Shown piece after piece: positions 901 to 63,138 of a stretch of DNA of 64,000 bases. The position numbers were made by a program, and so were the translations under genes. The stretch lies in assembly GCA_938049385.1 (NCBI GenBank), contig CALIBQ010000012.1, positions 74,131 to 138,130 on the forward strand, read 5' to 3'. This stretch comes from an uncultured Anaerolineae bacterium (GTDB lineage Bacteria; Chloroflexota; Anaerolineae; JACIWP01). The notes under the pieces are model-generated. The model was not told where the DNA came from and did no database searches. It worked only from the letters and a program-made list of their open reading frames with translations. The number at the start of each line of letters is the position of its first letter. Position 1 is the first letter of the stretch.

Positions 901-1034
901 CGGACGCGGCTTGACGGCTGAAGCCACGGCAACAACTGCAAAGCCTGTGCAGACAGGCTTCGCGAAATCGGCGCAGGATGACTTCGCAGGCACAGCCGCA
1001 GTTTCAACTGCCAGGTGACTTTTTCCACACCCCC
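901..1034 (-). repeat. Copy A of a ~130-220-bp intergenic palindromic repeat family (4 copies in window; same orientation as copy D, inverted relative to B and C)
   Basis: Contains core ggctgaagccacggcaacaactgcaaagcctgtgcagacaggcttcgcgaaatcggcgcaggatgacttcgcaggcacagccgcagtttcaactgccagg and terminal ctttttccacaccc; near-identical to 62983-63138 and to the reverse complement of 46040-46245 and 51835-51980. Confidence 0.85.
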
Positions 1035-1047
1035 ATGATATAACAAA

Positions 1048-1085
1048 GCGCCAGTCTGGACAAGTTCCGCTTGTCCAGACTGGCG
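1048..1085 (-). terminator. Hairpin terminator downstream of dnaK
   Basis: 14-bp perfect stem ccagtctggacaag / cttgtccagactgg with loop ttccgc, 12 nt after the dnaK stop (1097-1099). Confidence 0.5.
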
Positions 1086-1096
1086 TTGGGACGGCG

Positions 1097-3007
<1,911 letters not shown>

Positions 3008-3073
3008 AGTGTATCCCTCCTATCTGATAACCATGATATGATTGCTATCCTGTGTCATGCCGGCGGGATGGTC

Positions 3074-3310
3074 TCAAGTCCGAGTGTCATCCGCGGTGTC
3101 CGCGCCCGGGTCTCGCCGCGGTACAATGTGGCCCTGCCCGCTGGCCCGGGCCAGTGGCAGGTTCTGATCCATGGCCGGCAGACGCGCGTAATCGCACGTG
3201 CACGGCCCCCCGCGACTGCATCCCACACAGCAGTAGACGGTGCCGCGGATGACCGTGGGACGCCAGGAAAAGACGATACCGCAGTTGGCACACTGCCATC
3301 TCGGCGTCAT
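3074..3310 (-). CDS. Small Cys-rich protein, bacterial metallothionein (SmtA/BmtA)-like
   Basis: QCANCG…YCCVGCSRGGPCTC resembles the YCCxxC…CxC hallmark of prokaryotic metallothioneins; start chosen at MTPRWQ (GAGGTGGAG just upstream); an alternative start is at 3331. Confidence 0.4.
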   Translation of the reverse strand: MTPRWQCANCGIVFSWRPTVIRGTVYCCVGCSRGGPCTCDYARLPAMDQNLPLARASGQGHIVPRRDPGADTADDTRT

Positions 3311-3377
3311 GCTCCACCTCTTCGCCGGCATGCGAAACTTCGCCCGCAGTGGGCTATTCCCATTGTATGCGGATGGT

Positions 3378-3419
3378 GTTAGAAGTATGCTAGAGATTTG
3401 TTAGAATTTCATTAGAGTT
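3378..3419. promoter_or_regulatory. AT-rich tandem ~22-bp direct repeat (GTTAGAA…TAGAG x2) upstream of the metallothionein-like/dnaK transcription unit
   Basis: gttagaagtatgctagagattt / gttagaatttcattagagttgc; an AT-rich island in a 67% GC genome, immediately downstream of the response-regulator gene and upstream of minus-strand genes. Confidence 0.3.
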
Positions 3420-3432
3420 GCAGAGGATACCG

Positions 3433-4170
3433 TCAGCCGGCCTCGGTCGGTTCGCGGCCGCGGCCGGCGCGCCGGCCGCGAAAGTCCACGAAACGGTACC
3501 CGATGCCGTGCTCCGTGAGGATGTATTTGGGGTTGGCTGGGTCCGGCTCGATTTTCTGGCGGAGATAGGTGATATACAGGCGCAAAAGCTGGTGATCATC
3601 GCGGTACTCGTGCCCCCACACTTTGGAAAGCAGCATCTCGTGGGTCATTACCCAGCCGGCGTTGTTGACCAGATGGTATAAAAGCCGGTATTCCGTCGGG
3701 CGGAGCTTGACCCGGTTTCCGCACACGATCACCTCGCGCTGGTCGAAGTCAATCTGCAGATCGTCATCTACCACTACCAGCCCCTGGGAGGCCGGCATGG
3801 CCGCTTCCGTACGCCGCAGTACCGCCTTGATCCTGCTGACCAGCTCGCGCGGGCTGAACGGCTTGGTGATGTAGTCATCCGCTCCCAAATCCAGCCCGCG
3901 CACGCGATCCTCCTCCTCGCCTTTGACCGTCAGCATGATGACCGGCACCGTGGAGAAACTGCGGATTTCCTTCAGCACCTCGAACCCGTCCATGTCGGGG
4001 AGCATGACGTCCAGCAGGACCAGGTCCGGCAGTTCGTTGCGCACCTTTTCGACGGCCTCGCGGCCGGCGTTCGCCTCGCTAACGCGAAAGCCCTCCAGCT
4101 CCAGGTTCATGCGCACGAAGCGCACGATGCGGGATTCGTCATCCACTACCAGGATATGACGCCTCTCCAT
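3433..4170 (-). CDS. OmpR-family response regulator (receiver + winged-helix)
   Basis: [12 protein letters not shown]…[13 protein letters not shown]…[17 protein letters not shown]; GGGAG RBS. Confidence 0.9.
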
Positions 4171-4203
4171 CTTGACTCCCTTCCGCCCTCCGAGCAGGCC
4201 GCG

Positions 4204-5784
4204 TTATTCGGTGATGCGCGGCAGGGTGAAGTAGAAAGTAGCGCCCTTGCCGGCCTCGCTCTCCACCCAAATGCGCCCGCCGTGGGCCTCGATGATGGCC
4301 CGGCTGAGATACAGCCCCAGGCCGACGCCAGGAGTTTGCCGGCGCAGGCCGGAATCCACGCGGTAGAAACGCTGAAACAGGCGGTTCTGCTCCTCTTTCG
4401 GTATGCCGATGCCCTCGTCCGAGACGTACACCATCACCTCATGATCCAGCACGCGGCCGCCCACGCGAATGGTGCCGCCGCGCGGGGAGTACTTCACCGC
4501 ATTGTTCAGCAAGTTGTACAGCACCTGGCTGATGCGCTCCTCATCGGCGAAGACCGGCGGGAAGTCAGGCGGGAAGGCAAGCTCGAAGCGGTGCACGGAA
4601 GTCTGGGTACGCAGGCGGTTCACGATTTTCTCCGCCAGACGCGGCAGGGAAACGTCGGTCAGCTCCAGCTTCAGGCCGCCGGCCTGGATGCGCGAGGCGT
4701 CCAGCAGGTTGCTGATAAGCTGGTCCAGCCGATCGCTTTCCTCCTCAATGATGCGCAGTCCCTCGCGCACTGTCGCCTCGTCCCAATGTGCATCTTCCCG
4801 GCGCAGTGTGCTGGCGTAGCCTTTGATGAGCGCCACCGGCGTCTTCAGCTCATGGGAGATGACCGAGATAAAGGTGGACTGCAGTTCCTCGGCCTGGCGA
4901 AAGCGGGTGATGTCGTGCACATCCAGGATGATGTTCAGCAGACGGCCTTCCTCGTCCCAGAGCAGGGAATGGTTGATGCCCACGGAGACCTTACTGCCGT
5001 CCGGGCGGACGATATCTCCCTCTAGGTAAAGCGTCTCTTCGGCGCCGGCCGGCTCCTCCGCCTGCTCCAGCGCGGCGCAGACCCTGCCGCACAGCGGCTG
5101 TCCCTGGGCATTGACCGCATTCAGCACCTCCGCGCAGTGCCGGCCGACCGCATCGCCGGAACGCCAGCCGGTCATGCGCTCCAGCGCCCGGTTGATGACC
5201 TCTACCCGGCAGTAGGCGTCCAGGATCATGATGCCGTCGGCGCTGTGTTCGATGATGGCATCCAGCCGGCGCTTCTCCGCCAGCAACTGCTGGTACAAGC
5301 GGGCGTTCTGGATGGCGATGGCCGCCTGGTCGGCGAAGCTGGCCAGCACCTGCCGGTCATCCTCGGAGAATGCCAGGCCGGTGAGCCGAAAGACGTAGAT
5401 GACGCCGATAAGTTGGTCGCCGATCATCATGGGCAGGGCTACGACCTGACGCAGGGGCAGGCCGACGGCGGTGCTGACAAGATGGAGCCGCCAGGACAGG
5501 TCGGGGATGGTCCAGCCGGCCGATACGCCGGCGCCGGGAAGGACCGGGATATTTTCCAGCAGGGGAGTAAACAGGTGGAGCATCTGGGATGGAATGCCGT
5601 ACGCGGCCCGAATGCGGAACGCATCCTGGTTATCCCGCACAGCGATGAAGGCCGCATCGGCACCCAGGAGTTCCGCCGCGCTTTCCAGGACCAGCCGGAG
5701 CACGGCGCGCACATCCAGCCGGGAGGTCATAGCCCGGCTGATGGCCAGCAGATAATCTCGCTGTCGCAGTCGGTAATCGAGCAT
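4204..5784 (-). CDS. Sensor histidine kinase with GAF and PAS domains
   Basis: H-box SHELKTPV, N/G1/G2 boxes (LLNNAVKYS, DEGIGIP, GVGLGL); an alternative GTG start is at 5808. Confidence 0.85.
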   Translation of the reverse strand: MLDYRLRQRDYLLAISRAMTSRLDVRAVLRLVLESAAELLGADAAFIAVRDNQDAFRIRAAYGIPSQMLHLFTPLLENIPVLPGAGVSAGWTIPDLSWRLHLVSTAVGLPLRQVVALPMMIGDQLIGVIYVFRLTGLAFSEDDRQVLASFADQAAIAIQNARLYQQLLAEKRRLDAIIEHSADGIMILDAYCRVEVINRALERMTGWRSGDAVGRHCAEVLNAVNAQGQPLCGRVCAALEQAEEPAGAEETLYLEGDIVRPDGSKVSVGINHSLLWDEEGRLLNIILDVHDITRFRQAEELQSTFISVISHELKTPVALIKGYASTLRREDAHWDEATVREGLRIIEEESDRLDQLISNLLDASRIQAGGLKLELTDVSLPRLAEKIVNRLRTQTSVHRFELAFPPDFPPVFADEERISQVLYNLLNNAVKYSPRGGTIRVGGRVLDHEVMVYVSDEGIGIPKEEQNRLFQRFYRVDSGLRRQTPGVGLGLYLSRAIIEAHGGRIWVESEAGKGATFYFTLPRITE

Positions 5785-5987
5785 GGCAGGTCCCCGTCTT
5801 TGGGGCACAGCGCCGCTGTGCCCCTACAGCAAATCCCTATCGCACGACGCTGAGCACTCTAACACCATTCTTTCGCGCTCTCAAAAATCTCCCTTGCCGA
5901 CCGTGCGGATTCATTATACCATAAAGGATATCTGTTGGCGGATTACTGCTGGTGGATGTTTCTGCGCCTCGCGCACAGGAGGTGGAT

Positions 5988-6464
5988 ATGGCTTGGGTGC
6001 GGTTTGACCCGGACGGCATGCCGGCGCCTTCGCTGGACCTGCCGGCGGTTGGCGAGGCGGAGCTTGGGATCGCCGATTTTCGCGGCGTGTCCAGCCTGCT
6101 GGTGTTGTTCAGCCATGGGCCGGCCTGCGCCGGCTGTCAGGAGGCTGTGTCCTGTTTGGCCGAACGGGAAAGGGACCTGGAATTCGCCCGGGCGGAGGTC
6201 ATCATCGTCCTGCCGGCCGCGCCGGCGGAAACCGGAACCCTGCCGGCAGGCCGGCGGCTCCACTGGATCGTTGACGCAGGGGGTGCACTGCGTCAGGCAT
6301 ATGCCGGCCTGCTCCCAGATGCATCGCCAGATGCGGCCATGCTCTTTGTCCTGGACCAGTACGGCGTGCCCTGGGCCGGCTGGCACGGCGCGGAGCCGGC
6401 GGGTGAGCTATGTGCGGAGGGCATTGAGTGGCTGGAGTTCATCGCTCTCCAGTGCCCGGAATGA
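5988..6464 (+). CDS. Thioredoxin-fold protein (redoxin/AhpC-TSA-like, CxxC)
   Basis: LVLFSHGPACAGCQEAV motif; AGGAGG 6 nt before ATG 5988. Confidence 0.65.
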   Translation: MAWVRFDPDGMPAPSLDLPAVGEAELGIADFRGVSSLLVLFSHGPACAGCQEAVSCLAERERDLEFARAEVIIVLPAAPAETGTLPAGRRLHWIVDAGGALRQAYAGLLPDASPDAAMLFVLDQYGVPWAGWHGAEPAGELCAEGIEWLEFIALQCPE

Positions 6465-6605
6465 GGCTCGGCGGAATGGCCCGTGCGGCCATAAGGTGGA
6501 AGAGAGGCTCTCAGCGCCGGCTGGCGGGTTCCCTCATCAGTTCCTCTACCAATGCGCCAAGCGTGCGCACCGCTGGCTCAGCCGCCGGCGACCAGTTGGC
6601 GGCGT

Positions 6606-7964
6606 TCAGGCGGATGAAGTTGCGGTAGCGCTCGCTGGCGGAGAAGAGAAGATGTAGCCCGGGGTGATGGCAGTGCCGGCCCTGAGGGCGCGCCGGTATA
6701 ATTCCAGCGAGTCCACGTGTTCCGGAAGCTGGACCCAGAGGAGGAAGCCGCCGGCCGGCCGAGTGACGCGCGTGCCGCGCGGGAAGTAGCGCGTCACTGC
6801 CAGGGACAGCTCCGCCACGTTACGGGCATATTCGCGGCGGATGTGGCGCAGGTGGTGGTCATAGCTCCCGCTGGCCAGGAACTGGGCGATGGCCAGTTGG
6901 GGCAGGGTGGCGGTAGCCAGAGAAGAGGTATATTTGAGCCACTCCACCGCCGGCGCGAAGCGCCCCGGCGCCGTCCAGCCCACGCGGTAGCCCGGGGACA
7001 GGTCTTTGGAGAACGAGGAGCAGAGCATCACCAGCCCCTTGCGGTCGTAGGCCTTAGCCACGGTGGGGCGCTTCCCCGAGAAGTAAATTTCCCCGAAGAT
7101 GTTGTTCTCGATGAGCGGGATATCGTGTTGGGCCAGCAGGGCCACCAGCTCGCGCTTCTTGGCATCCGGCATACAGCTTCCCAGGGGATTGTTGAAATTG
7201 GAAATGACCAGACAGGCGCGCACTGGCGTGTGTTCCACGGCGAAGCGCAGGGCGTCCAGGCTGATGCCCTCGCGTGGGTGCGTGGGTATCTCCAATGCCT
7301 GCAGGCCGAGCACTTCTAGGGTCTGCAGGGCATCAAAGCAGATGGGTGATTCAATGGCGACGATGTCCCCGGGCCGGCAGACGGCACGCAGACAAAGGGT
7401 GATGGCCTCGGCACAGCCGGAGGTGATGATGATATCCGCCGGCGTGAGGTTACAGCCGGCGGCCACCATCCGCTGGGCGATTTGGACGCGCAGGGCATCA
7501 CAGCCGGCCGGCAGGGCATACACCCCGCTCTGCTCTCCCAGCTCGCGCGCGATGGCGCTCATGATGCGGTTCAGCTTGCGCGTCGCCGTCAGCGCCAGGT
7601 TGGGGTACGCAACACCGAGCTGTACCAGCCTGGGGTTCAGGGCATCGCGCAGAACCATGGTCACCAGGTCGCGCACGCTCACCTCAGCCGGGTCCAGGCT
7701 GGGCGCCGATATCTCTGGCTCAGGCAGGACCGCCGGCAGTGCCGTGCGCACATAAAAGCCCGAGCGAGGACGCGCCTCAATGACCCCGCGTGCCTCCAGC
7801 AGATAATAGGCGGTCAGCACCGTCGTAATGCTGACCTGCTTCTGCTGGCTCAACTGCCGCACCGAGGGCAGGCGGTCGCCGGGGCGGAAGATGCCGCTCT
7901 CGATCCAGCGCGTGATCTCGCCGGCGATTTGTTCATACGCAAAGGACTGCTGTGGATCGCCCAT
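6606..7964 (-). CDS. MocR/GntR-family transcriptional regulator with PLP-dependent aminotransferase-like domain
   Basis: N-terminal GntR HTH (RLPSVRQLSQQKQVSITTV) plus class-I aminotransferase fold (FSKDLSPGYRVGW, putative PLP Lys). Confidence 0.85.
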   Translation of the reverse strand: MGDPQQSFAYEQIAGEITRWIESGIFRPGDRLPSVRQLSQQKQVSITTVLTAYYLLEARGVIEARPRSGFYVRTALPAVLPEPEISAPSLDPAEVSVRDLVTMVLRDALNPRLVQLGVAYPNLALTATRKLNRIMSAIARELGEQSGVYALPAGCDALRVQIAQRMVAAGCNLTPADIIITSGCAEAITLCLRAVCRPGDIVAIESPICFDALQTLEVLGLQALEIPTHPREGISLDALRFAVEHTPVRACLVISNFNNPLGSCMPDAKKRELVALLAQHDIPLIENNIFGEIYFSGKRPTVAKAYDRKGLVMLCSSFSKDLSPGYRVGWTAPGRFAPAVEWLKYTSSLATATLPQLAIAQFLASGSYDHHLRHIRREYARNVAELSLAVTRYFPRGTRVTRPAGGFLLWVQLPEHVDSLELYRRALRAGTAITPGYIFSSPPASATATSSA

Positions 7965-8054
7965 ACTCTCATTATAGCGCAGGCACGGGGTGCTCAAAAG
8001 ATACAGAATCCCCTCGAAAGCATCAGTACAGTTTCCAAACAATCTCTTCTGTTA

Positions 8055-8085
8055 TGTAACAGATAGGATTTTCTGTATCTGTACA
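8055..8085. promoter_or_regulatory. Candidate operator: inverted repeat TGTAACAGATA-N10-TATCTGTACA in the divergent region between the MocR regulator and 8180 gene
   Basis: Imperfect 10/11-bp palindrome; GntR/MocR regulators typically bind such sites in their own divergent promoter region. Confidence 0.3.
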
Positions 8086-8179
8086 CTTCCCCTGGTCCCG
8101 GATACACTGATGATAGGATAGTGCCGTTCCCTATGAACATATTTCAACAGCCGGCGGTGCGGCCGGCAGGAGGTACATA

Positions 8180-8563
8180 ATGACCACATTCAAACCGAAA
8201 ACCAGCCTGGTGCTGACGGTGGCGAAGAAGCCTCGCTCCGAGGGAGTGCAGAGAGAACAATTGAGTGTGCCGGTGGTCAACCTGCGCCAGGGGATGATGG
8301 AGCGGATAGAGCTGTCCGCCGGCGAACTGGTGCGCCTCTCGGGTGCGAACCGCTGGCGCATCCTCGTGTGCCGGCGGGGACGCGTCTGGGTAACCCAGGA
8401 AGCCGATGTCCGGGATTACGTGCTGGAGCCGGGGCAGATGTTCGTCATCGCTCAGCCCGGCACGGTCATCCTCCAGGCGCTGTGCGAGGCGGAGTTGGTA
8501 CTGACGCCGGCCCTGCAGACCATCCCCTATCGCGGCCGGTACGAGGACGCCGTCTTCTCATGA
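8180..8563 (+). CDS. Hypothetical protein (possibly DUF2917-like), divergent from the MocR regulator
   Basis: 127-aa ORF with GGAGG RBS; no confident family assignment. Confidence 0.6.
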   Translation: MTTFKPKTSLVLTVAKKPRSEGVQREQLSVPVVNLRQGMMERIELSAGELVRLSGANRWRILVCRRGRVWVTQEADVRDYVLEPGQMFVIAQPGTVILQALCEAELVLTPALQTIPYRGRYEDAVFS

Positions 8564-8584
8564 CAAAAGGGGTGCGCCGGCCGT

Positions 8585-9205
8585 TCACTGCGCCGGCGCA
8601 CCGATAAACTCCTCATACAAGTCAGCGAACACCGCCGGCGCTACGGCGTATATCTGGCGTAGCATCTCTTTCGCTAGCTCTCGGATCTCCCACTGCGCGT
8701 CCTGCCGACAGCGCACGCGGAAGAAATGCCGCAGTTCGCGGAAGTTCATCGTCACCACGATGCGGGTCGCCGCGGCGTTGGGCAGGAGGAATCTGCTGTC
8801 CTCTTTACGCACCCCCCGTTCTCGCAGTTTGCGGTAGGCTTCCCTGGCCTGCTCCATGAACTCGTTCCAGATTTCCATGGCGGCCGGGTCGCCGGCGACA
8901 GCCGGCGGCACCACAAATTCCGCGTCCGACATATCCACGTAGCGCTGGGATTCCTGGGAATAGCTGGCCAGGCGGTGGCGCACCAGTTGATGCGAGCAGG
9001 CGCGCGAGATGCCCGTGATGTAAAAGGTGGCCGAGGCATGCTCGATGATGGATTCATGCCCCTCGCGCACGCGCTTCATGACGAAATCGCCGGCGTCGCC
9101 GCGCGGCGCACTGCGGTAGCAGACCCGGCCGGCGAACTCCAGCAGTTCCACCGGCGTGCCCCCGCCCTTCAAATAGCGCGTTAAGGCGATCAGCTCAACC
9201 TGCAT
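8585..9205 (-). CDS. thyX: Flavin-dependent thymidylate synthase ThyX
   Basis: ThyX motif RHRLASYSQESQRY; AGGAGG RBS; lies 30 nt downstream of the SdhA-like gene on the same strand. Confidence 0.85.
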   Translation of the reverse strand: MQVELIALTRYLKGGGTPVELLEFAGRVCYRSAPRGDAGDFVMKRVREGHESIIEHASATFYITGISRACSHQLVRHRLASYSQESQRYVDMSDAEFVVPPAVAGDPAAMEIWNEFMEQAREAYRKLRERGVRKEDSRFLLPNAAATRIVVTMNFRELRHFFRVRCRQDAQWEIRELAKEMLRQIYAVAPAVFADLYEEFIGAPAQ

Positions 9206-9234
9206 TATCCTCCTCCTGGCAGAGGGAAGCACCC

Positions 9235-38055: not shown

Positions 38056-38084
38056 TGGACAAAGTGCGCGCATTCCGCTATAAT
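38056..38084 (+). promoter_or_regulatory. Sigma70-like promoter TGGACA-N17-TATAAT upstream of a long structured leader
   Basis: Consensus-like hexamers with 17-nt spacer. Confidence 0.4.
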
Positions 38085-38090
38085 GCAAGC

Positions 38091-38340
38091 TGTGCTCCAT
38101 CCCGCATCTTGCCTGGTGCTGAAGCACCAGGCTCACGGGCCAAGCCCCGCAAGGGCTTTGCTTCGTAGGCCGGCGGCTTCCAGCCGCCGGCGAACCCGCC
38201 GCCCTATGGCACGTGTCAATGCGAATAAGAAGCTGTGGCGCTGGTTAGCCTCGATAAGCACTTGAGACAACAGGTTTGCTGTCAAGATAAAAATATAAAA
38301 ATTTGCACTTCATCAACTGCCAGGCAACCTTTTTCAACAT
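38091..38340 (+). promoter_or_regulatory. Long GC-rich structured 5' leader (candidate cis-regulatory RNA/riboswitch or sRNA) upstream of the cell-wall amidase gene
   Basis: Several perfect hairpins: cctggtgct-gaa-gcaccagg; gccc-cgcaa-gggc (GCAA tetraloop); ccggcggc-ttcca-gccgccgg; second TATAAT at 38345. Confidence 0.3.
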
Positions 38341-38366
38341 CTGTTATAATGGGAGCGCGGGCAGTG

Positions 38367-42530: not shown

Positions 42531-44372
<1,842 letters not shown>

Positions 44373-44439
44373 GGTGGAATCCCTCCTGTGTGGTGAGATG
44401 AATTTGGAGCATGCTGTACGCCACTGCCCATCCTTTTGT

Positions 44440-44640
44440 CCCGGCGGTCGCCCGCGGGCGTTGTGGAAGGGCTTTCGTTACGCTCAGGAGGGGAAGCGTG
44501 AGGGACGTGGCCATCCCTGGAGGCATCCGCTGATCCTTCGATTTTCTCCGCCGGCCTGGCGGATTAGCCCTGGCTCGCGTCAGGGAACCTCCCCCTCGTC
44601 AGCTCACCCGCTTGCGCAGATGAGCCCGTGCGCTGTCGCT
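44440..44640 (-). ncRNA. glmS ribozyme: glmS ribozyme (GlcN6P-responsive self-cleaving ribozyme) in the glmS 5' UTR
   Basis: Minus-strand RNA …GACA^GCGCACGGGCUCAUCUGCGCAAGCGGGUGAGCUGACGAGGGGGAGGUU…AUCGAAGGAUCAGCGGAUGCCUCCAGGG…CGUAACGAAAG matches the conserved glmS ribozyme core (AGCGCC P1, UGACGAGG-GGAGGUU, AUCGAA…CGGAUGCCUCC, CGUAAGGA) as remembered from the Bacillus subtilis ribozyme; sits directly upstream of glmS. Confidence 0.75.
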
Positions 44641-44701
44641 TCCCCACTGCGTCTTTGGAATATCTACATACACCGGCCCTCCTTTCCTCGAGGCTAACCG
44701 T

Positions 44702-44791: not shown

Positions 44792-44919
44792 TTTACCTCT
44801 GGACGCACGGCCCGGCCTAGTGTATAATGGAATCAGCATCGGAGGAACGCGTTCACGGCCAGGCCGGCGAAAGGAGGAATTGCCCGATGAACGTTTTCAA
44901 CCGTATCATGATGGTGCTG

Positions 44920-46039: not shown

Positions 46040-46245
46040 GTCCCTCGCTGAAGAATGTTGAAAAAGTCTCTCGATTTGCGGGTATTGGCTCATCGCCTGA
46101 CAGTTGAAACTGCGGCTGTGCCTGCGAAGTCGGTGCAGGCCGACTTCGCGAAGCCTGCGCAGACAGGCTTCGCAGTTGTTGCCGCGGCTTCAGCCGCCGG
46201 GAAGCTCTTCCACAGAGTATGTTTGGACCCTTTCAACACCCTCCC
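46040..46245 (+). repeat. Copy B of the intergenic palindromic repeat family (longest copy), immediately upstream of scpB
   Basis: tgttgaaaaag…cagttgaaactgcggctgtgcctgcgaagtcggtgcaggccgacttcgcgaagcctgcgcagacaggcttcgcagttgttgccgcggcttcagccgcc…ctttcaacaccctcc; its reverse complement matches copies A and D. Confidence 0.85.
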
Positions 46246-46332
46246 CACCGTCCATTTTGTCCTTTGGCCAATCTATTGTAATATATCGCCAATAACTGGC
46301 AATGCCCCGGCAGGGGAGGGAGCAAGCCCTGG

Positions 46333-51821: not shown

Positions 51822-51989
51822 CCCTCGCAGTCAGAGGGTGTTGAAAAAGCTTGACAGTTAAACCGCAGGCCTGCGCCGACTTCGAGAAGCCTGCGCAGGC
51901 AGGCTTTGCAGTCGTTGCCGTGGCTTCAGCCGCCAGGCCGCTCTTCCCCAGATTGTATGGCTGGACTTTTCCGGCACCCTCGCAGTCAG
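51822..51989 (+). repeat. Copy C of the intergenic palindromic repeat family (short variant) flanked by 13-bp direct repeat CCCTCGCAGTCAG
   Basis: agggtgttgaaaaagcttgacagttaaaccgcaggcctgcgccgacttcgagaagcctgcgcaggcaggctttgcagtcgttgccgtggcttcagccgcc…cttttccggcaccct; direct repeat at 51822-51834 and 51977-51989. Confidence 0.8.
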
Positions 51990-55093: not shown

Positions 55094-55136
55094 CGGAAAC
55101 GCTTGACCCGATTTCTCATCTCATAAGGAGCGAGGA

Positions 55137-56306
55137 ATGTCCCAATCTACGGCAAGTTCATACCAAGAACTGATGAATCAAGCGGTTCAATACCTCCGAG
55201 CGAGAGAATATGACAAAGCGGTTGAGATGCTGGACAGGATCAGCAAAAGCCTCAACCGGCTGAGCTACGAGGCACTGCGCAAGCGGCCAGACCTATGGGC
55301 ACTCTTCGTCATGGCCTGCACAGAGGGTTTGCAGATTGCGGGGGAACACGGCCTGGTGGAACGGGTGCGCTCCTTTCGAGACCGCATTCAACGGGTCATG
55401 CCGGCGGAGGACCGCGTTACCCAGCTTGTACTGGCCTTCGCTGAGGTATATTTGGGGGAAATGGATGAGGCCAGGAAACATATTGCCGGCCTGGTGGATG
55501 CCCCCGACTTGACGTTCGGACAGCGCCTTGAGCTGGCCGGCTTTGCGCTGAAGGCTTTCTCGCCGGAGCTGGCACTGCAGGTGCTGGAACATGCGGTGAT
55601 GCCGGCACTGCCGCAGGAAGACGATCCCCAGAGAGAAGAGATAGAGTGGAATATCATCCGCTACTGGAGGACCTATATCGAGGCCCTGCTCCAGGCCGGC
55701 CGGCTGGACGAGATTGATGAACCCCTTCGCCAGTTGGAGAAAATCGCGCCCCGCCGCATCCCCTATCCCTTTATCACCCATGCCTTTTTGAAGCGGAAAG
55801 ATTATGCTCGGGCGATCGAGTACGCGGACCGCACGCCGGAGCTGGCCGGCCGAGGTCTGCTCCGGGGATTGGTGGCCGCCGACCAGGGCAAAATGGATTG
55901 GGCGCGGGACGAGTGGTGGCGGGTGGTGCGCGAGCCGCTGGACGTCAAGGGCGAACGGCTGAATTTCGATGCCTGGATGGAGTGTGCCCTGCGCATGGAT
56001 GACCAGGAAAAGATGGCGTCGGCGCTGGAGGCCGGCACGCCGGCACTGGAAGACGCGGCCTGGTTCCGCCTGTATCGGTCCCTGTATCGAGCCAAGCAGG
56101 GCGAACCAGCGGAGGCCTTACCGCTCTTCCGGGAGGCGTTCCGGGACATGCTCGATATGACGGATGTGCCGGTCGCCAGGGAATGGGTGATTTGGCATAT
56201 CTCCGGCCTGGTGGAACAGGTCCTGCCCGAGGATGTCCGCGGCGATTTCCTGACGGCTGTACAGGAAGTGGGGGGTACACTGCCGGCCGAACCGCAGGAG
56301 GCGTGA
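55137..56306 (+). CDS. Hypothetical alpha-helical (TPR-like) protein
   Basis: AAGGAG RBS; helical repeat composition; no specific family. Confidence 0.6.
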
Positions 56307-56313
56307 GAGGGCT

Positions 56314-56751
56314 ATGCGGGCAGTCGTACAGCGGGTGGTGCGCTCATCGGTAAGCGTGGACGGAAGGGTGGTCGGGCAGATCGGCAGGGGTCTGAATGTG
56401 CTCATCGGCGTGCGCCAGGGCGATACCGAGGAACAGGCGCGCTGGCTGGCCCACAAGATCGCCGGCCTGCGCATCTTCGAGGACGAACAGGGCAAGATGA
56501 ACCTCTCCGTGCGAGACGTGGGCGGCGAGGCGCTGGTCATCTCGCAGTTCACCCTGTACGGCGACGCGCGCAAGGGCTTCCGCCCGAGCTTCGTGGATGC
56601 CGCGCCGCCGGAAATCGCTTCGCCGCTTATTGACCGCTTCGTGGAATTTCTGCGCGAGGAAGGGGTCCCTGTCCAGACCGGTGTGTTCCAGGCGATGATG
56701 CTGGTGGAAATTCTCAATGACGGTCCGGTAACGATTATTCTGGAGAGGTGA
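56314..56751 (+). CDS. dtd: D-aminoacyl-tRNA deacylase
   Basis: MRAVVQRV…SQFTLYGD…NDGPVT motifs. Confidence 0.9.
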
Positions 56752-56754
56752 ACC

Positions 56755-57591
56755 ATGATCACTCAGGAACGGACGTTCGAGGGTGCGAAGGGTTTGCGCA
56801 TTTTCTACCGGTATTGGGCGCCGGAGGGCCGGCCGCCCCGGGCCATCATCCTGCTGATTCACGGGTATGCAGAACACGCCGGCCGCTATCTTGCCCTGGC
56901 CGAGTACCTCACCGGGAGAGGCTACGGCATCTATGCCCCCGACCTGCGCTCTCATGGCCGCTCCCAGGGGGAGAAGGCGCTCATTGACAGCATGGATTAC
57001 ATGCTGGAGGACCTGCGCGCACTGCTGGATATCGCCCAAGCGGAGCATCCCGGCCTAAAGACCTTCGTCATCGGCCATTCTATGGGCGGCTTGCTGGCGG
57101 TATGCTTCACCATCCTGCACCAGAGCCGGCTCGCCGGCGTGGTGCTGTCCGGCGCCGGGCTGATGCCGGGGGCCGGCGTGTCCCCGTTGCTCAAACTCGT
57201 CAGCCGGCTCCTGGGTACCCTGTCCCCGCGCATGCCCCTCCAGGAACTGGACAGCGCCTGGCTCTCTCATGACCCCAACATTGCCCGTGACTACGACACC
57301 GCCCCGTTGAATTATCGGGGGAAAGTGATGGCCCGCACCGCCGCGGAGATGCTGCGCAAAGCCGATTGGGCGCTCCCGCGGGTGTCGGAAATCCGCATCC
57401 CCCTGCTGTGCCTGCACGGCGGGGAGGACAAGCTGGTCAGCCCGGAAGCCGGCCGCTACGTTTACGAACATGCCGGCTCAAGCGACAAGACATTGCGCAT
57501 CTTTGACGGCCTCTATCACGAGGTCTTCAACGAGATCGGCAAAGAGGGAATCTACGCGCTGGTCGCCGACTGGCTGGATGCGCGATGCTGA
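56755..57591 (+). CDS. Alpha/beta hydrolase (lysophospholipase/monoacylglycerol lipase-like)
   Basis: GHSMGG nucleophile elbow, HG oxyanion motif LLIHGYAEH. Confidence 0.85.
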   Translation: MITQERTFEGAKGLRIFYRYWAPEGRPPRAIILLIHGYAEHAGRYLALAEYLTGRGYGIYAPDLRSHGRSQGEKALIDSMDYMLEDLRALLDIAQAEHPGLKTFVIGHSMGGLLAVCFTILHQSRLAGVVLSGAGLMPGAGVSPLLKLVSRLLGTLSPRMPLQELDSAWLSHDPNIARDYDTAPLNYRGKVMARTAAEMLRKADWALPRVSEIRIPLLCLHGGEDKLVSPEAGRYVYEHAGSSDKTLRIFDGLYHEVFNEIGKEGIYALVADWLDARC

Positions 57592-57597
57592 TGCGGT

Positions 57598-57632
57598 CAG
57601 GTGACAGTCACCTCATCGGTGACTGTCACCTG
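57598..57632. terminator. Bidirectional hairpin between convergent genes (tandem self-palindromic 13-mers GGTGACAGTCACC / GGTGACTGTCACC)
   Basis: caggtgacagtcacc-tcatc-ggtgactgtcacctg; lies between the stop at 57589-91 (+) and the stop at 57636-38 (-). Confidence 0.5.
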
Positions 57633-57635
57633 CAG

Positions 57636-59870
57636 TTACCGGCTGTTCACTAGTTCGCGAAGCTGTTCCAACCAGTGCAGGAAGGGATTGCGAGGCACGG
57701 CCGGCTTCACTGCCGGCAGTTGCTCCGAAACAACATCCCCGCCTGGCTGAGAAACCACCTGAAACGCCTTTCCGCCCACCACGAAGATGACGTCCTGCCC
57801 CAGGGCCAGGTACGCCGCGCATTCCGGGTACTGCTCCAGGAGCTGGAAATAGGCCGGCGAGGCGAACGCCACCTTCACAGCCGTCATCCGGGATGGGTCA
57901 TAGCGGGTATCGGTCCAGACCCCCTGCCGCAGGATGAACGCCTTATCGCCCACATATCGCACCTCTGCCGGCGCCGCCTGCACCACCTGCTCCACACCCC
58001 GCAGGGCCTGCACGGCCATGCTTTTCTCCACCGCGCCGGCGCCTACCGCCGGCTCCGGCGCCATCAGGCGCAGTTCGTCCTGCGCAATTTGCGCACGCCC
58101 CTCTTCTGTCAGCACATATTCCGGCTCTTCCACCAGGAAAGCGGTATAGGGCGTGATAATGCCGTAGCGCACGCTCAGGTCAATGAGTTCCTCCACCAGT
58201 TCGCGGTTCTCCCCATGCAGGCGAATCTGGTCCAGCAAGTAGCCGACCTTGCGCGTGGCCCACAGCCGCGCAACGAACGCCGGCCCGCCGGCGTCGGTGA
58301 ACCGCAGACCCTCGTACACGTATTCCTCCAGCCGGCCGTTCACCTCCCCGCGCAGGGTGATGGTGGTTGTCCCGCCGGCACGATAGCGGCCGGCGACCAC
58401 CAACTGCGAGCCGAGGAAGATATCCGGTAGTGGGTCGGGATACAGCTCCATCACGTGCAGGTCCCCGAAGTCCAGCGCCGGCGCGACCAGCAGAGGGGCG
58501 TTAATCTTGGCGTACAGCGCGGAGACCTTCTCGTCAATGCGCTCCTCCGGCAGGACATAGGTGGCGACCCCGCCGTGCCGTTGGGTGATGGTGTCCAGGA
58601 GCAGGGTGTTGACGTCATAGCCGACGCCGAAGGCGAAGATGCGCGCCTGTTTGCCGGCCGCCTCGTCCACCGCCTGGATGATGCGGTCAATGTCGGTTAC
58701 CCCCTCAGTGGGCAGGCCGTCGGTCAGGAACAGCACCACGAAGGGCCGGCGGGTATCCTCTGCCAGCGCCAGCGCCTCCAGCAGGGCACGGTGGATGTTC
58801 GTTCCGCCGGCGGCTCGCAGTCCCTCGACGTAGCGTACAGCCTCTGACGCCTTGCCCGCCGGCTCCAGCCGGCGGGAGAAGCTGCGCACGCCGGTGCTGA
58901 AATCAATGATGTTGAAGCGGTCCTCGGACCGCAACTGCTCCAGGATGTAGCGCGCCGCGGCCTTGGCCTGTTCGATCTTCTGACCCTGCATACTGCTGGA
59001 GGTATCCAGCACCAGCACCACATCGCGCGGGACGATTTCCTCCTGGGGCCGGCGGTCGTCCGGCGTGATGAAGAGGAGGAAGAAGCCGTCCTCGCCGGCC
59101 GGCCGATAGCTGATGAGATTCACGGCGAACGGGTCATCGGCCGTGCTGAAGTAAAGGGCAAAATCCTGGTTCGGCAGGACGTTGTTCGCCTCGTAGCCGA
59201 TGCGCGCACGCCGCTCGTCGAGACGCTCGACGGCCACCTCGTGGCTGGGAGAATATACCGCCCGCAGGGGGGCGTCCGTCGAAAGCTCCACCGCGATGCT
59301 CACGCTCTGAATGGGGCGGGCGGAGAAGCGCTCCGTGTCCAGTGGGTAGACGTACTGGTACAGGCCGTTTTCCCGGCGCAGGGTCTGGGTGTAGGAGATT
59401 TGCACGCGGCGCTCGCCGCCGGCGGGGATGGGGAAAATGCGCGCCTGGAACGCGCCGCGCCCTACGTACTCCAGCAGGGCAGGGTCGCGCTGCCGGCGCA
59501 CGATTTCCTCATAGATGCGCCGCGCCTCCTCCCGGTCCAACAGCTTCCCTTCCAGCCGCTGGCCGTCCACGATGAGGTCGAACTGCGAGATGGCGGCGTC
59601 CTCCGGCAGGGGGAAGACGTAGGTGCCCTCAACCGGGAAGCGGGACTCATTGACGAAGACCTGGTCCACTTTGGTCTCCGCCACCATGCCTTCAATGTGC
59701 ACTTCCACATGATGGTAGCGGATGGTCAGTGCCGGCGGCTCCGGGATAGGCGGTATAATGGGCGGCGGGTCCGGGATAATGATGCCGTCGGCCAGGGCCG
59801 GCGGAGCCAGCATCAGACATAGCACCAGCGCCATGCATCCGATCAGCCAGCGGCGCATTATGCGCTTCAT
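57636..59870 (-). CDS. Secreted VIT (vault inter-alpha-trypsin) + vWA domain protein
   Basis: Signal peptide MKRIMRRWLIGCMALVLCLMLAPPALA, N-terminal VIT domain, vWA MIDAS VVLVLDTSSSM. Confidence 0.85.
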   Translation of the reverse strand: MKRIMRRWLIGCMALVLCLMLAPPALADGIIIPDPPPIIPPIPEPPALTIRYHHVEVHIEGMVAETKVDQVFVNESRFPVEGTYVFPLPEDAAISQFDLIVDGQRLEGKLLDREEARRIYEEIVRRQRDPALLEYVGRGAFQARIFPIPAGGERRVQISYTQTLRRENGLYQYVYPLDTERFSARPIQSVSIAVELSTDAPLRAVYSPSHEVAVERLDERRARIGYEANNVLPNQDFALYFSTADDPFAVNLISYRPAGEDGFFLLFITPDDRRPQEEIVPRDVVLVLDTSSSMQGQKIEQAKAAARYILEQLRSEDRFNIIDFSTGVRSFSRRLEPAGKASEAVRYVEGLRAAGGTNIHRALLEALALAEDTRRPFVVLFLTDGLPTEGVTDIDRIIQAVDEAAGKQARIFAFGVGYDVNTLLLDTITQRHGGVATYVLPEERIDEKVSALYAKINAPLLVAPALDFGDLHVMELYPDPLPDIFLGSQLVVAGRYRAGGTTTITLRGEVNGRLEEYVYEGLRFTDAGGPAFVARLWATRKVGYLLDQIRLHGENRELVEELIDLSVRYGIITPYTAFLVEEPEYVLTEEGRAQIAQDELRLMAPEPAVGAGAVEKSMAVQALRGVEQVVQAAPAEVRYVGDKAFILRQGVWTDTRYDPSRMTAVKVAFASPAYFQLLEQYPECAAYLALGQDVIFVVGGKAFQVVSQPGGDVVSEQLPAVKPAVPRNPFLHWLEQLRELVNSR

Positions 59871-59971
59871 CTCTCTCCTCCGTCACCTCGTAAAAGGCTA
59901 TCGGCGCGTTTCTGCATATCAGACGCCGGCAAATTGCGCTTCGTTCCCCGAAACCGGCCGACGCGAACGCA

Positions 59972-60001
59972 TTTCGCCCCGCAGAAGTTTCGTGGTAGAA
60001 T
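59972..60001 (+). promoter_or_regulatory. Putative promoter with extended -10 (TGgTAGAAT) upstream of the AOR gene
   Basis: tggtagaat at 59993-60001; weak -35 tttcgc. Confidence 0.3.
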
Positions 60002-60030
60002 AGCACCAGCTACTGCACGGAGAGAACGCC

Positions 60031-62025
60031 ATGCGCGAATGGTTCGGCTGGGTCGGGAAATTCCTCTGGGTGGACCTCTCCGCCGGCAGGGTGGAGGAGA
60101 TGGACACCGCCCCGTATACGGAAGCGTACATCGGGGGGCGGGGCATCGAGGCGCGCCTGGCCTGGGAGAAGATGCCGGCCGGCATCGGTGCCTTCGATGA
60201 AGCCAACCTGCTGATGTTCTTCCCTGGGCCGCTGACCGGCACCATCGCACCCTTTTCCGGCCGCACCAGTGTGGCCAGCCACGCTCCCCAGGGTTATCCC
60301 CATGAGTGGTTCAGCCGCGCCAACTTCGGCGCGCATTGGGGCGCCTCGCTGAAATACGCCGGCTACGACGGGCTGGTGATCGCCGGCAAAGCGGAACAGC
60401 CGGTCTACCTGTGCATCGAGGATGGTCGGGCCGAGGTCCGGCCGGCCGAGCACCTGTGGGGCAAGGGCATCCTGACAACCCAGCAGATGCTCCAGGAGGA
60501 GCTGGGCAAGGGCTGGCGCATCCTGTGCATCGGGCCGGCCGGCGAACACCGCAGTCGCATCGCCGTCATCCAGACCGAGACGGAATCGGCGGCTGGCCAG
60601 GGCGGTTTCGGCGCTGTCATGGGGGATAAACGGCTGAAAGCGGTTGCTGTGCGCGGCACCGGCCCGGTGCGGGCGGCGCATCCCGATCTGCTCTGGGAAC
60701 GGACGAAGGCGATACTGGAGGAAGCGCGGCAGGGATGCCGGCTGGCGCAGGGCAAGCTTGACCCCGAGCGGGTGAAGCGCTACGGCCTGCGCTATCACGC
60801 CTGCACCCAGCAGTGCGGCATCGAATGCGGCGGCGGCTCGTACTATTACCGGGATGTGCCCGGCCCGCTGAGTGGCCGCAAGCTCTCCGGGCATATGCAC
60901 TGCGTCGCCCCCATTTTCCCGGGACTGCCCGGCACCTTCTACGATTGGAAGCTGGGGTTCGAGGCCGGCTTCGAACTGGCACAGATGTCCAACGACTACG
61001 GCATCAACCATTGGGACCTGGTTTTCGGCATCCTCCCCCTCCTGCGCTACTGGCGGGAGAGCGGCCTGCGGTCAGAGATTGACGGCCTGCTTATTGACCT
61101 GGATGAACCGCGCTTCTGGGCGGAGCTGTTCCGCAAGATCGCCTATCGGGAGGGCATTGGGGATGTGCTGGCCGAGGGTGGCTGGCGGGCGGCCAAGCAG
61201 TTGGGGCTGGCGGAGGATTTCGCCGACGGCTTATACCAGGCCTGGGGGTACGCCGGCCATATGGATTCCCGCGGCGACCGCGCCAACCGAGTGATGTTCC
61301 CCTTCTGGATCGTGCCGGCATTGCAGTGGGCCATTGACACCCGCGACCCTATGGGAGGGAGCCATGGGTACATCACCGGCGCGCTGGGGTATTCCCCGCT
61401 GGCACATAACGGGCAAGGGCCTTCGTGGGAGCAGTTGATGGCCGGCGCGGAGAAGCTGTACGGCACGCGCTTGGCGCTGGACCCGTATTCAGGCTACGAG
61501 GGAAAGGCGCCGGCGGCACGCTGGCACTGCATCCGCGGCGCGCTCAAGGACAGCCTGACGGTGGACGACAACGTCTTCCCCATGTTGTGGAGCTACCGCA
61601 CCGAGGACGGCATGGCGCGCGCCGGCGGTATGGAAGGCTACGCGTTCGAATACCACCTCTTCACAGCGGCTACCGGCCTGGAGCTGAGCGAAGAAGAGTT
61701 CAACCGCTGTGGGGAGCGCATCGTGAGCCTGGAGCGCGCCCTGCAGGTGCGCGATTTCGCCCGCTCGCGTCAGGACGACGAGGTCATCATCCCACATTTC
61801 ACCGAGCAGGAGGACTTCCTGCCCAGCCCGTATTTGGGCGGGACCCAGCGGGGGGATGCGGAGAAACTGCGCGCTGCGTTGAGCGAGTTCTACGCGCTGT
61901 GGGGGTGGGATGTGGAGAGCGGCCGGCCGACCGCCGAGGCTCTGCGCCGGCTGGATATGAAGGATGTCGCCGAGGTCCTGCTGGCCCGCCGGCTCATCCG
62001 CGACCCTCAGCACTCCCCGGCATAA
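60031..62025 (+). CDS. Aldehyde:ferredoxin oxidoreductase family protein (tungsten/molybdopterin AOR)
   Basis: AFOR N-terminal domain (LWVDLS…YIGGRG…), cluster Cys region CTQQCGIECGGG, large C-terminal AOR domain. Confidence 0.85.
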   Translation: MREWFGWVGKFLWVDLSAGRVEEMDTAPYTEAYIGGRGIEARLAWEKMPAGIGAFDEANLLMFFPGPLTGTIAPFSGRTSVASHAPQGYPHEWFSRANFGAHWGASLKYAGYDGLVIAGKAEQPVYLCIEDGRAEVRPAEHLWGKGILTTQQMLQEELGKGWRILCIGPAGEHRSRIAVIQTETESAAGQGGFGAVMGDKRLKAVAVRGTGPVRAAHPDLLWERTKAILEEARQGCRLAQGKLDPERVKRYGLRYHACTQQCGIECGGGSYYYRDVPGPLSGRKLSGHMHCVAPIFPGLPGTFYDWKLGFEAGFELAQMSNDYGINHWDLVFGILPLLRYWRESGLRSEIDGLLIDLDEPRFWAELFRKIAYREGIGDVLAEGGWRAAKQLGLAEDFADGLYQAWGYAGHMDSRGDRANRVMFPFWIVPALQWAIDTRDPMGGSHGYITGALGYSPLAHNGQGPSWEQLMAGAEKLYGTRLALDPYSGYEGKAPAARWHCIRGALKDSLTVDDNVFPMLWSYRTEDGMARAGGMEGYAFEYHLFTAATGLELSEEEFNRCGERIVSLERALQVRDFARSRQDDEVIIPHFTEQEDFLPSPYLGGTQRGDAEKLRAALSEFYALWGWDVESGRPTAEALRRLDMKDVAEVLLARRLIRDPQHSPA

Positions 62026-62040
62026 AGGACTGCGGCCGGC

Positions 62041-62988
62041 ATGCCAGCTTCCGCCCCTCCTTCCGCCTCTCCTAGAACGCGCGGCCGGCTCTGGCGTCTG
62101 GCCCAAATTCTCGTCGTCGTCGCCGTCCTGTTCTTCTGGGGACGCGCTGTCTGGAACAACTGGCCGGCCTTCGCCGCGCAGGAGTGGCATGTTCAGCCGG
62201 CGTACCTGCTCGCTTCCTTCGCGCTGGTGCTGGCCCAGCTTTTCCTGCTGGCGGCTGTCTGGCACTGGACGCTGGTGCGGCTGGGGGTACGCCGGCCGTG
62301 GCAGGAGGCCGCACGCATCTGGGCATTATCGCAGATCGCGCGCTACCTGCCGGGCGGCATCTGGGACGTGGCCGGCCGCTTCGCCATGGGGACGCGGGCC
62401 GGCTATCCGACGCTGGCGCTTTCCTTCAGCATCCTGCTGGAAATGGCCCTGCAGGCGCTGACGGCCGCCCTCGCCTTTGTGCTGAGCCTGCCGTTCTGGC
62501 CCCAACTGCCGCCAGCAGATGGCCTGCGCTGGGCTATCCCACTGAGCCTGCTGGGCCTGGCGGCGCTCCATCCCCGGGTGATCCAGTTCGGCCTACGGGC
62601 AGGCGCGCGCCTGCTCCACGTGGAACTGCCGGCGGTCACCCTGCGCTATCGGGACATGCTCTTCCTGCTCCTCGGCCACATGCTCACCCAGGTCTGCATC
62701 GGTACCGGCTTTCACCTGTTCATGCGAGCGGTGTATCCCGCCTGGCCGGCGCATCAGTGGCCGGTGGCGGTTGGCACCTATACTGCCGCCTGGCTGATCG
62801 GCTTCCTCATTGTCTTCGTCCCTATGGGCATCGGGGTGCGGGAAGGCATCATCGTGATACTGCTGGCGCCTTTTGTGCCGTTCGCGCCGGCGAACGCCGT
62901 TGCCATCGGCTTCCGCCTCTGGATCGCCTTGCGCGACGCTCTCTTCGCCGGCATCGGCGCCCTTTTGAAGACGCGGCCTGGCGGCTGA
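62041..62988 (+). CDS. UPF0104/lysylphosphatidylglycerol-synthase-TM-like membrane protein (flippase-like)
   Basis: 8-TM protein of the LPG_synthase_TM family; stop codon lies inside repeat copy D. Confidence 0.75.
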   Translation: MPASAPPSASPRTRGRLWRLAQILVVVAVLFFWGRAVWNNWPAFAAQEWHVQPAYLLASFALVLAQLFLLAAVWHWTLVRLGVRRPWQEAARIWALSQIARYLPGGIWDVAGRFAMGTRAGYPTLALSFSILLEMALQALTAALAFVLSLPFWPQLPPADGLRWAIPLSLLGLAALHPRVIQFGLRAGARLLHVELPAVTLRYRDMLFLLLGHMLTQVCIGTGFHLFMRAVYPAWPAHQWPVAVGTYTAAWLIGFLIVFVPMGIGVREGIIVILLAPFVPFAPANAVAIGFRLWIALRDALFAGIGALLKTRPGG

Positions 62989-63138
62989 AGCCGCGGCAAC
63001 ACCTGCGAAGCCTGTCCGCGCAGGCTTCGCGAAGTCGGCGCCGGCCGACTTCGCAGGCACAGCCGCAGTTTCAACTGCCAGGCGATGAACCAATACCCGC
63101 AAATCGACAGACAATCTTGATTTTTTCAACACCCTCCC
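62970..63138 (-). repeat. Copy D of the intergenic palindromic repeat family
   Basis: gacgcggcctggcggctgaagccgcggcaacacctgcgaagcctgtccgcgcaggcttcgcgaagtcggcgccggccgacttcgcaggcacagccgcagtttcaactgccagg…ttttttcaacaccctccc; reverse complement of copy B. Confidence 0.85.

Follow-up and report, generated by a model that had tools for sequence, protein, structure and literature searches.

The DNA examined, a 64-kb window with 64.9% G+C from an uncultured Anaerolineae bacterium (contig CALIBQ010000012.1), carries a family of short palindromic repeats in the spacers between housekeeping genes. Four intergenic copies (A–D) lie at ~901-1032, 46052-46241, 51835-51980, and 62971-63135; they are 132-190 bp in size, are built of hairpins, and have no coding capacity. 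Copy A is flanked by dnaK and a Zn_peptidase_2 gene, copy B by an unknown 185-aa gene and scpB, copy C by a radical-SAM/DUF512 gene and a MoxR-like ATPase gene, and copy D by an LPG_synthase_TM gene and efp, the closest homologues of which (97-98% identity) belong to "Anaerolineae bacterium" metagenome-assembled genomes (MAGs). A four-copy family at these places, akin to repetitive extragenic palindromes (REPs) or miniature inverted-repeat transposable elements (MITEs), had been proposed from the sequence alone (the original prediction), and pairwise blastn bears it out with 83-90% identity over 74-146 bp: B/D 90.4% over 146 bp, C/D 88.8% over 80 bp, A/D 87.9% over 116 bp, A/C 86.5% over 74 bp, A/B 85.7% over 105 bp, and B/C 83.2% over 107 bp. 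In a four-way alignment the conserved block extends far past the hairpins, and an extra internal segment of ~35 bp is common to B and D. Because the shared sequence goes beyond the hairpins, A–D are one family, real copies of a small non-coding mobile element.

At the core of the element, a ~57-nt unit with two hairpins is present in two inverted copies; it comprises, in order, a 5-bp stem with a TGAA loop, GGCAAC, a 4-7-nt spacer, and a second G+C-rich hairpin. The TGAA loop is invariant in the first hairpin of each unit, the stem of which is GCGGC/GCCGC in type I and GCAGT/ACTGC in type II; in the type II unit GGCAAC has diverged to GGCTGT. The second hairpin is AAGCCTG...CAGGCTT or AAGTCGG...CCGACTT. 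Of the two perfect hairpins originally described, both are present in B and D, but those of A are mismatched and C lacks most of the second; the second "arm" is not an exact complement but repeats the first unit in inverted and diverged form (GGCAGT-TGAA-ACTGC). AGGGTGTTGAAAAAG stands on the type II side in all of A–D, and its inverse on the other side in B and C. An 18-nt box, GGCTGAAGCCNCGGCAAC, occurs four times in the window against 0.66 expected, a count that none of 100 shuffles reached. The terminal motif is over-represented as well: as the 17-nt end AGGGTGTTGAAAAAGTC (up to three mismatches) it is found six times in the window, each time adjoining a unit, and in ~1 Mb of other DNA as one chance match. 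A covariance model of the ~57-nt unit (R1) recovers four type I units in the window at 52-70 bits and three type II partners at 24-40 bits (51.7 and 25.9 bits for the two units of copy A), and, at 38097-38194, also catches the two arms of a variant element, the fifth in the window. Folded as single-stranded DNA, the cores of D (-41.6 kcal/mol, z = -5.1 vs. shuffles) and B (-34.1 kcal/mol, z = -3.9) stand out, whereas the decayed copies A and C are unremarkable (z = -1.7 and -1.1).

Terminal inverted repeats, imperfect and 15-17 bp long (AGGGTGTTGAAAAAGTC ... GACTTTTTCAACACCCT), had been predicted on both sides of the elements; this is so in the full-length copies B and C, but A and D have one end each. 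Copy B (+ strand) measures 190 bp, with its left end at 46052-46068 (AGAATGTTGAAAAAGTC), its right end at 46226-46241, a type II unit at 46094-46149 (+), and a type I unit at 46148-46203 (-); the flanking stretches 46043-46051 and 46242-46250, 5/9 identical, may be a decayed 9-bp duplication. It lies between divergent promoters and the start of the unknown 185-aa gene, 92 bp upstream of scpB. Copy C (+) is a 146-bp element (left end AGGGTGTTGAAAAAGCT, right end GACTTTTCCGGCACCCT) with a type I unit at 51884-51939 (-), the type II unit being largely deleted. The 13-bp direct repeat reported around it is found at 51822-51834 and 51977-51989; it contains the perfect 9-bp direct repeat CGCAGTCAG (51826-51834 and 51981-51989) that abuts both ends of the element, so that element plus duplication span 51826-51989 (+). 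Copy A (-) retains one terminal repeat at 1016-1032 (- strand reading GGGGTGTGGAAAAAGTC), with a type II unit at 962-1017 (-) and a type I unit at 908-963 (+); its far end (~870-903) is decayed or ill-defined. On one side of the copy stands the dnaK terminator (1050-1085), on the other the ribosome-binding site of the Zn_peptidase_2 gene. Copy D (-) likewise keeps one terminal repeat, at 63119-63135 (- strand reading AGGGTGTTGAAAAAATC), and has lost the other end; its type II unit is at 63029-63084 (-) and its type I unit at 62975-63030 (+).

All four sites are empty in congeneric MAGs, the contigs of which (cited here, as are other loci, by L numbers) were obtained via the neighbouring proteins and show ~79-90% nucleotide identity and the same gene order. 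Copy D is absent from L108-L110, L112-L114, and L117-L121, where its spacer measures 102-129 bp vs. 235 bp in the window. Homology with the relatives ends at 62970 and restarts at ~63137, and in the place of D there are 29-36 bp in L112-L114 and L117, or ~120 bp in L108 and L110. The stretch that D replaces holds, in the relatives, the last codons and native stop of the upstream gene and, in L112-L114 and L117, also the 5' arm of an intrinsic terminator (gccggccggcaatcccgccggcgttttttgg). The junction lies at GAAG, which also occurs at the matching place inside full-length copies; this suggests a deletion through GAAG microhomology, by which D probably lost one end together with its neighbour's last codons, stop, and half of the terminator.

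Copy B is absent from L117-L119, and positions 46041-46252 of the window are represented by 11 bp in L117 and L119. Copy C, the youngest-looking, is absent from L117-L119 and L122, in which the spacer differs and is filled with AGGTGACWGTCACCT palindromes. Alignment of its right junction to L117, L119, and L122 gives ccct/cgcagtcag/caatttgg as the inferred empty site, with a single orthologous stretch in the relatives; C is therefore flanked by a perfect 9-bp duplication. Copy A is absent from L123 and L124, where tatcatgg runs directly into the ribosome-binding site, and in the window GGGTGTGGAAAAAG... comes right after tatcatgg at the copy boundary. By empty-site comparison, the insertion boundaries read (A)GGGTGT in A, C, and D (diverged to AGAATGT in B) and, on the other side, CACCCT in B and C; the insertion ends thus coincide with the inverted repeats.

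A copy of the A–D type also lies downstream of tRNA-Thr in L113 and L114 (there is none at that place in L112), and both contigs terminate within their copy, as is typical of multi-copy repeats. No unit was found in ~100 kb of other relatives. Because the four sites are empty, L113 and L114 have a copy elsewhere, and the ~100 kb of relatives hold no unit, the family is in flux within the genus, and the lineage of the window has seen it expand; A–D have inserted recently into intergenic spacers of housekeeping genes. Since 64 kb hold four copies plus a variant and a solo end, relatives show presence/absence polymorphism, and the copies align outside the core, the proposal of a mobile or amplified REP/MITE-like family stands. 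The alternative named alongside it, that there is no family and that independent G+C-rich terminator hairpins have become alike by convergence, is next to impossible, the alignments and empty sites having refuted it already: the copies do lie near gene ends and promoters in a 65% G+C genome, but their identity includes non-palindromic segments, they share specific ends, and R1 finds no unit in 307 kb of unrelated G+C-rich metagenome DNA.

The effects of the copies on neighbouring genes are demonstrated solely for a stop codon and terminator replaced at D and for untranslated-region (UTR) hairpins added at A and B. As predicted, the stop codon of the upstream gene lies inside D: the LPG_synthase_TM gene now terminates at TGA 62986-62988, which is part of the first hairpin's loop. 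As described, D is followed by the efp promoter (TTGGAA 63147-63152, TGn-TATACT 63168-63176), but this promoter is kept in relatives without copy D; the promoters adjoining B, C, and D are ancestral, being conserved in relatives that lack the element, so that the suggestion that the element carries promoters does not hold. The placing of B at a rearrangement junction fails too, because the genes on either side of B are syntenic in L117, where synteny ends ~1.2 kb to the left, near 44795; no evidence was found that copies mediate rearrangements. The new stop and the extra 5' or 3' UTR hairpins would be by-products of insertion and not a selected function.

Inverted-repeat ends at the insertion boundaries, a 9-bp duplication, small size, and lack of coding capacity are the signature of a MITE inserted through staggered cuts. 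Bacterial MITEs, such as Correia/NEMIS of Neisseria, RUP of Streptococcus pneumoniae, and ERIC/IRU of enterobacteria, are non-coding elements of ~100-200 bp that end in inverted repeats, duplicate their target, and lie between genes in multiple copies; they fold into long hairpins, come in long and short variants, and by inserting can reshape gene ends and UTRs. The window elements match them in size, non-coding nature, inverted-repeat ends, copy number above one, intergenic position, hairpins, and length variants. They differ in that no parent insertion sequence was seen, in that only one of the four copies has an intact duplication, and in that their core is a REP-like unit pair that is also found without the ends in other phyla.

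We consider it probable that the family is a set of non-autonomous, non-coding palindromic transposable elements of the MITE kind, ~146-190 bp at full length, that are moved in trans by a DDE transposase. Such a transposase would integrate the element via staggered cuts, and its likely source, to judge from similar ends and 9-bp duplications, would be an IS903-like element of the IS5 family. The terminal repeat of IS903B is GGCTTTGTTGAATAAATC, which was checked on plasmid Rts1, where perfect 18-bp inverted ends bound a 1057-bp element that encodes an "IS5-like element IS903B family transposase"; an IS903 51-mer occurs in at least 5000 plasmids at ≥99% identity. The two ends have TGTTGAA and 4/6 of the following bases in common, one base nearer the tip in the window element and hence at a nearly equal distance from it, and IS903B makes 9-bp target repeats like that of copy C (PMC9769513). 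IS903 differs in being a 1057-bp enterobacterial element with a transposase gene, and in its outermost bases (GGCTT vs. AGGG in the window element). The likeness is a lead rather than proof or a demonstrated relationship. Similar ends also occur elsewhere: in L110 such ends (GAGGGCGTGGAAAGAC / CCTTTCACACC) enclose the different core of a variant element, and in L050 (a Longimicrobium MAG, 3243-3518) a unit dimer lies ~45 bp inside inverted GACTGTTGAGARA ends. The inverted ends of L050 (GAGACTGTTGAGAAAGCC / GGTCTCTCAACAGTCC) resemble those of the window, a likeness seen nowhere else outside the genus of the window, and TCCCTCAG is present on both sides with a 3-nt offset.

Several points weigh against a MITE moved by such a transposase. 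The IS903 likeness came from comparison with a few known ends rather than from a systematic search, and ~1 Mb of fetched DNA yielded neither an IS903-like gene nor a transposase with matching ends. The target duplication is clean in one copy only, with 5/9 matches at B and none at A and D, each of which has lost one end. Conservation across phyla is highest in the internal unit rather than at the ends, which is unusual for a MITE recognised by a transposase, and in other phyla, L050 apart, the unit dimers stop where the units do, lacking outer inverted repeats and duplications, which gives them the look of REPINs (REP doublets forming hairpins). Finally, the copy number of the family is a count in the 64-kb window and not genome-wide.

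Outside the genus, the unit is found in at least five phyla. A scan for the 18-mer in one genome per species gave at least 107 loci; among the matches listed, 59 (the window's four included) have the box followed by a perfect hairpin of at least 6 bp within 16 nt, and the other 18-mer matches look like chance. Carriers belong to Chloroflexota (a Chloroflexia MAG and another Chloroflexota MAG), Gemmatimonadota (Longimicrobium MAGs and a Gemmatimonadetes MAG), Armatimonadota (three lineages, including Capsulimonadaceae and Chthonomonadaceae), Abditibacteriota (Abditibacterium), and Myxococcota (a Myxococcales MAG), with weaker matches in Neolewinella. R1 identifies 108 units in 411 kb of unit loci, often several per 8 kb. 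Units are found singly, as inverted dimers, and in tandem, with lineage-specific flanks; inverted pairs occur in the window and in four other phyla. A metagenome pattern scan with 28 specified bases gave no matches for more copies, the genus being seemingly absent from the Joint Genome Institute (JGI) set. In viral contigs there was one 18-mer match, probably by chance, and the more than 120 matches to a 15-mer of the end are at chance level and uninformative. A full-text literature search for 14-16-mers returned no relevant paper.

The distribution of the unit bears on the foremost rival of the MITE reading, namely that the unit is a REP and the inverted pair a REPIN, moved as single-stranded DNA by a single-copy HUH Y1 transposase of the REP-associated tyrosine transposase (RAYT) type, encoded elsewhere, with the outer inverted repeats being merely the outermost part of a long palindrome. 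We regard this as possible but rather unlikely. On its other strand the unit reads GTTG-CC-GCGGC-TTCA-GCCGC, with the hairpin 2 nt from GTTG in most copies. REPs of E. coli have the form GGCG-TGAA-CGCC...CTAC. Like REPs, bacterial interspersed mosaic elements (BIMEs), and REPINs, the unit is a short G+C-rich hairpin by a conserved tetranucleotide, occurs as singles, inverted dimers, and clusters, lies downstream of open reading frames (ORFs), and shares with them insertion into palindromes and complementary stem variants (PMC3733652; PMC6006769). Further points in favor are the many copies per locus, the dimers of other phyla without outer repeats or duplications, the Watson-Crick-only covariation of the stems, the single units just 3' of ORFs, which is where REPs prefer to lie (PMC3733652), and the entry of D into a terminator palindrome, REPs having been reported to insert into small palindromes (PMC3733652). 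The tag, however, is mostly GTTG and not the canonical GT[AG]G of described REPs (PMC3733652; PMC6006769), although GTAG replaces it in some copies of L012 and L072; in addition, a second hairpin always stands at a fixed distance. The window element differs from REPINs in its outer inverted-repeat ends, with boundaries 25-50 bp outside the units, and in the perfect 9-bp target duplication of C, which is not a product of Y1 transposition; the duplication and the boundaries argue against a pure REPIN mechanism in this genome. REPs of class GTAG-23 have been described in Chloroflexi (Thermomicrobium roseum and Roseiflexus castenholzii; PMC3733652), but identity of the unit with GTAG-23 was rejected, as back-translation of the peptides given for GTAG-23 copies inside genes yields another sequence.

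No RAYT, the partner that defines a REP system and is typically flanked by its repeats, accompanies the unit in the DNA at hand. Tblastn searches with RayT of E. coli, nine further queries (RAYT/TIRYT or guessed), and IS200 TnpA found none in the window or in ~0.55 Mb around copies, a small and weak sample for the RAYT search that the original prediction had proposed, since a RAYT is normally a single-copy gene. Their only match, in L067, was to an IS200-like gene of the ordinary sort that stands 1 kb away from a unit dimer. This Y1 transposase gene (L067 3852-4514, - strand; a Capsulimonadaceae MAG) is flanked by hairpins CCGGCC-TGAA-GGCCGG and CCGGCC-TTAA-GGCCGG, one of which has the same loop as the unit, with different stems. 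Conversely, 80 metagenome RAYT/TIRYT loci (acidobacterial-type RAYT relatives; also a weak sample) contain no unit. A Pfam scan of 134 neighbouring ORFs gave unrelated housekeeping families only, and no neighbour recurred when 560 flanking ORFs were clustered all against all.

A further reading, which we advance as a doubtful one, is that the unit is an undescribed hairpin DNA module, horizontally spread or ancient, that occurs in at least five phyla, is recognised by a conserved trans-acting protein, and rides different carriers. That protein might be a host factor or a hairpin-binding enzyme, of the HUH type or another, that has gone unrecognised. In Anaerolineae and at least one Longimicrobium the carriers might be MITEs with outer repeats; elsewhere the unit would occur as bare REPIN-like dimers or singles. 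The window elements would then be a hybrid of the MITE and REPIN modes of spread.

The stems of the unit covary in a manner that bears on whether DNA or RNA is under constraint. Of the stem cells, 97.6% are paired, and double-sided changes occur in 12/12 pairs, with all controls far below. Since the stems change almost only by Watson-Crick double changes (181 double-sided vs. 8 single-sided, G-U type, cells), the constraint appears to act on DNA rather than RNA; on the sense strand A.C mismatches number 19 vs. 9 for G.T, and no RNA-sense wobble-pair signal was found in the stems. This pattern points to a both-strand (DNA) palindrome, which it fits better than a functional RNA. Under the MITE reading the hairpin core would be such a DNA-level palindrome, common to REP/REPIN-like repeats of other phyla.

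A conserved structured RNA, acting as a 3' or 5' UTR terminator, stabiliser, or processing site or as a small RNA, with the repeats merely its carriers, is a very unlikely explanation. Single units within 120 nt of a gene 3' end number 28 sense vs. 8 antisense (p = 0.001), a count that rests on a crude gene caller based on third-codon-position G+C (GC3); the bias could come from strand-specific insertion or from harmful orientations being selected against. Stem covariation goes with conserved loops (TGAA, CTNC), the variant element at 38097-38194 begins directly after a strong promoter-like site, and one Chloroflexia MAG has a further helix around the first hairpin with one compensatory change. 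Such an enclosing helix, however, is paired in 48% of cells only and is lineage-specific, and it was rejected. Against an RNA there are also the near absence of G-U intermediates (with A.C not rarer than G.T), the occurrence of both orientations and inverted pairs, the presence/absence polymorphism among close relatives, the lack of a U-tract after the second hairpin, and the lack of a called terminator at B. Rfam 15 at gathering score gives only the tRNA and the glmS ribozyme in the window, and at relaxed thresholds only the 24-nt CRISPR-DR28, on the second hairpin; the suggestion that the copies encode small RNAs is left with no supporting evidence, this match being spurious. Hammerhead, twister, and integron attC were rejected on sequence and on absent Rfam matches.

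On the second hairpin of the Chloroflexia MAG units, the Rfam model CRISPR-DR28 (RF01356; 24 nt) reaches 36-37 bits against a threshold of 35, and on copy B 24.9 bits; matches above the gathering threshold lie at L005 391-414 and 462-485, L012 4310-4333, L040 2423-2446, and L044 1103-1126. This Rfam family may partly describe the repeats discussed here. A CRISPR array was rejected, there being no spacer-separated arrays and no cas genes nearby and the window copies lying 5-45 kb apart; in the tandem case of L005 the whole 71 bp are repeated, "spacer" included, and the DR28 match spans one hairpin.

Two further related pieces lie between A and B. The variant, E-type element (38097-38194, +) has three hairpins (GCCTGGTGC-TGAA-GCACCAGGC; AAGCCC(C)-GCAA-GGGCTT; CCGGCGGCT-TCC-AGCCGCCGG), R1 scores of 15.8 and 21.7 bits, and a DNA fold of -34.2 kcal/mol (z = -5.9). 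It stands directly 3' of a near-consensus promoter-like TGGACA-17-TATAAT (~38058-38086), and homologues occur at other loci in L108-L110. A solo end remnant (~38316-38346, -) reads AGATGTTGAAAAAGGTTGCCTGGCAGTTGA, that is, a terminal repeat and the start of a type II unit. It lies ~120 bp beyond the E-type element, with an A+T-rich stretch next, all of it upstream of the Amidase_2 and scpA genes. For the amidase ORF, the annotated start (38235) is probably placed too far upstream. A weak R1 look-alike at 62875-62924 (-; GGCGGAAGCCGATGGCAAC..., 20.8 bits, E ~1e-4) lies inside the LPG_synthase_TM coding region, ~50 bp from the insertion point of copy D. A second family of short palindromic repeats, AGGTGACWGTCACCT, is represented by two adjacent copies at 57599-57631, between convergent genes. 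In relatives it has 2-6 copies per locus, including the C-orthologous spacer, with sites at L112 1652-1684 (after tRNA-Thr), at L117 9773-9880 and 15495-15599, and in L118-L122.

Other features were noted beside these repeats. A tRNA-Thr(CGT) gene at 63859-63934 (+) lies downstream of efp; in L113 and L114 the element copy is located 71 bp past their tRNA-Thr. At the synteny break near 44795 (L117 3102), the left side holds leuD/leuB/leuA-like genes in L117 and glmS with its ribozyme in the window. The glmS ribozyme (Rfam RF00234, 48.5 bits) is at 44416-44645 (-), upstream of glmS at 42531-44372 (-), the product of which has SIS and GATase domains. By crude GC3 gene calls, the loop TGA of the first hairpin is the stop of the upstream ORF in four independent loci: copy D of the window, L048, L058, and L080.

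The element is an ordinary kind of bacterial repeat, the core of which recurs near letter-for-letter in at least five phyla. REP and MITE families are normally lineage-specific, and an 18-nt box plus hairpin identical across five phyla is unusual for either. The copies account for odd gene ends, with a hairpin-loop stop here and in three other loci, and they break metagenome assemblies, the L113 and L114 contigs each ending within one. Since DR28 fires on them, units are mistakable for CRISPR repeats. The presence or absence of copies provides markers that separate closely related uncultured Anaerolineae. The box offers a concrete handle on the recognising protein and allows the sharing of one module by MITE- and REPIN-type spread to be tested; the more interesting question is what holds the unit nearly identical in five phyla.

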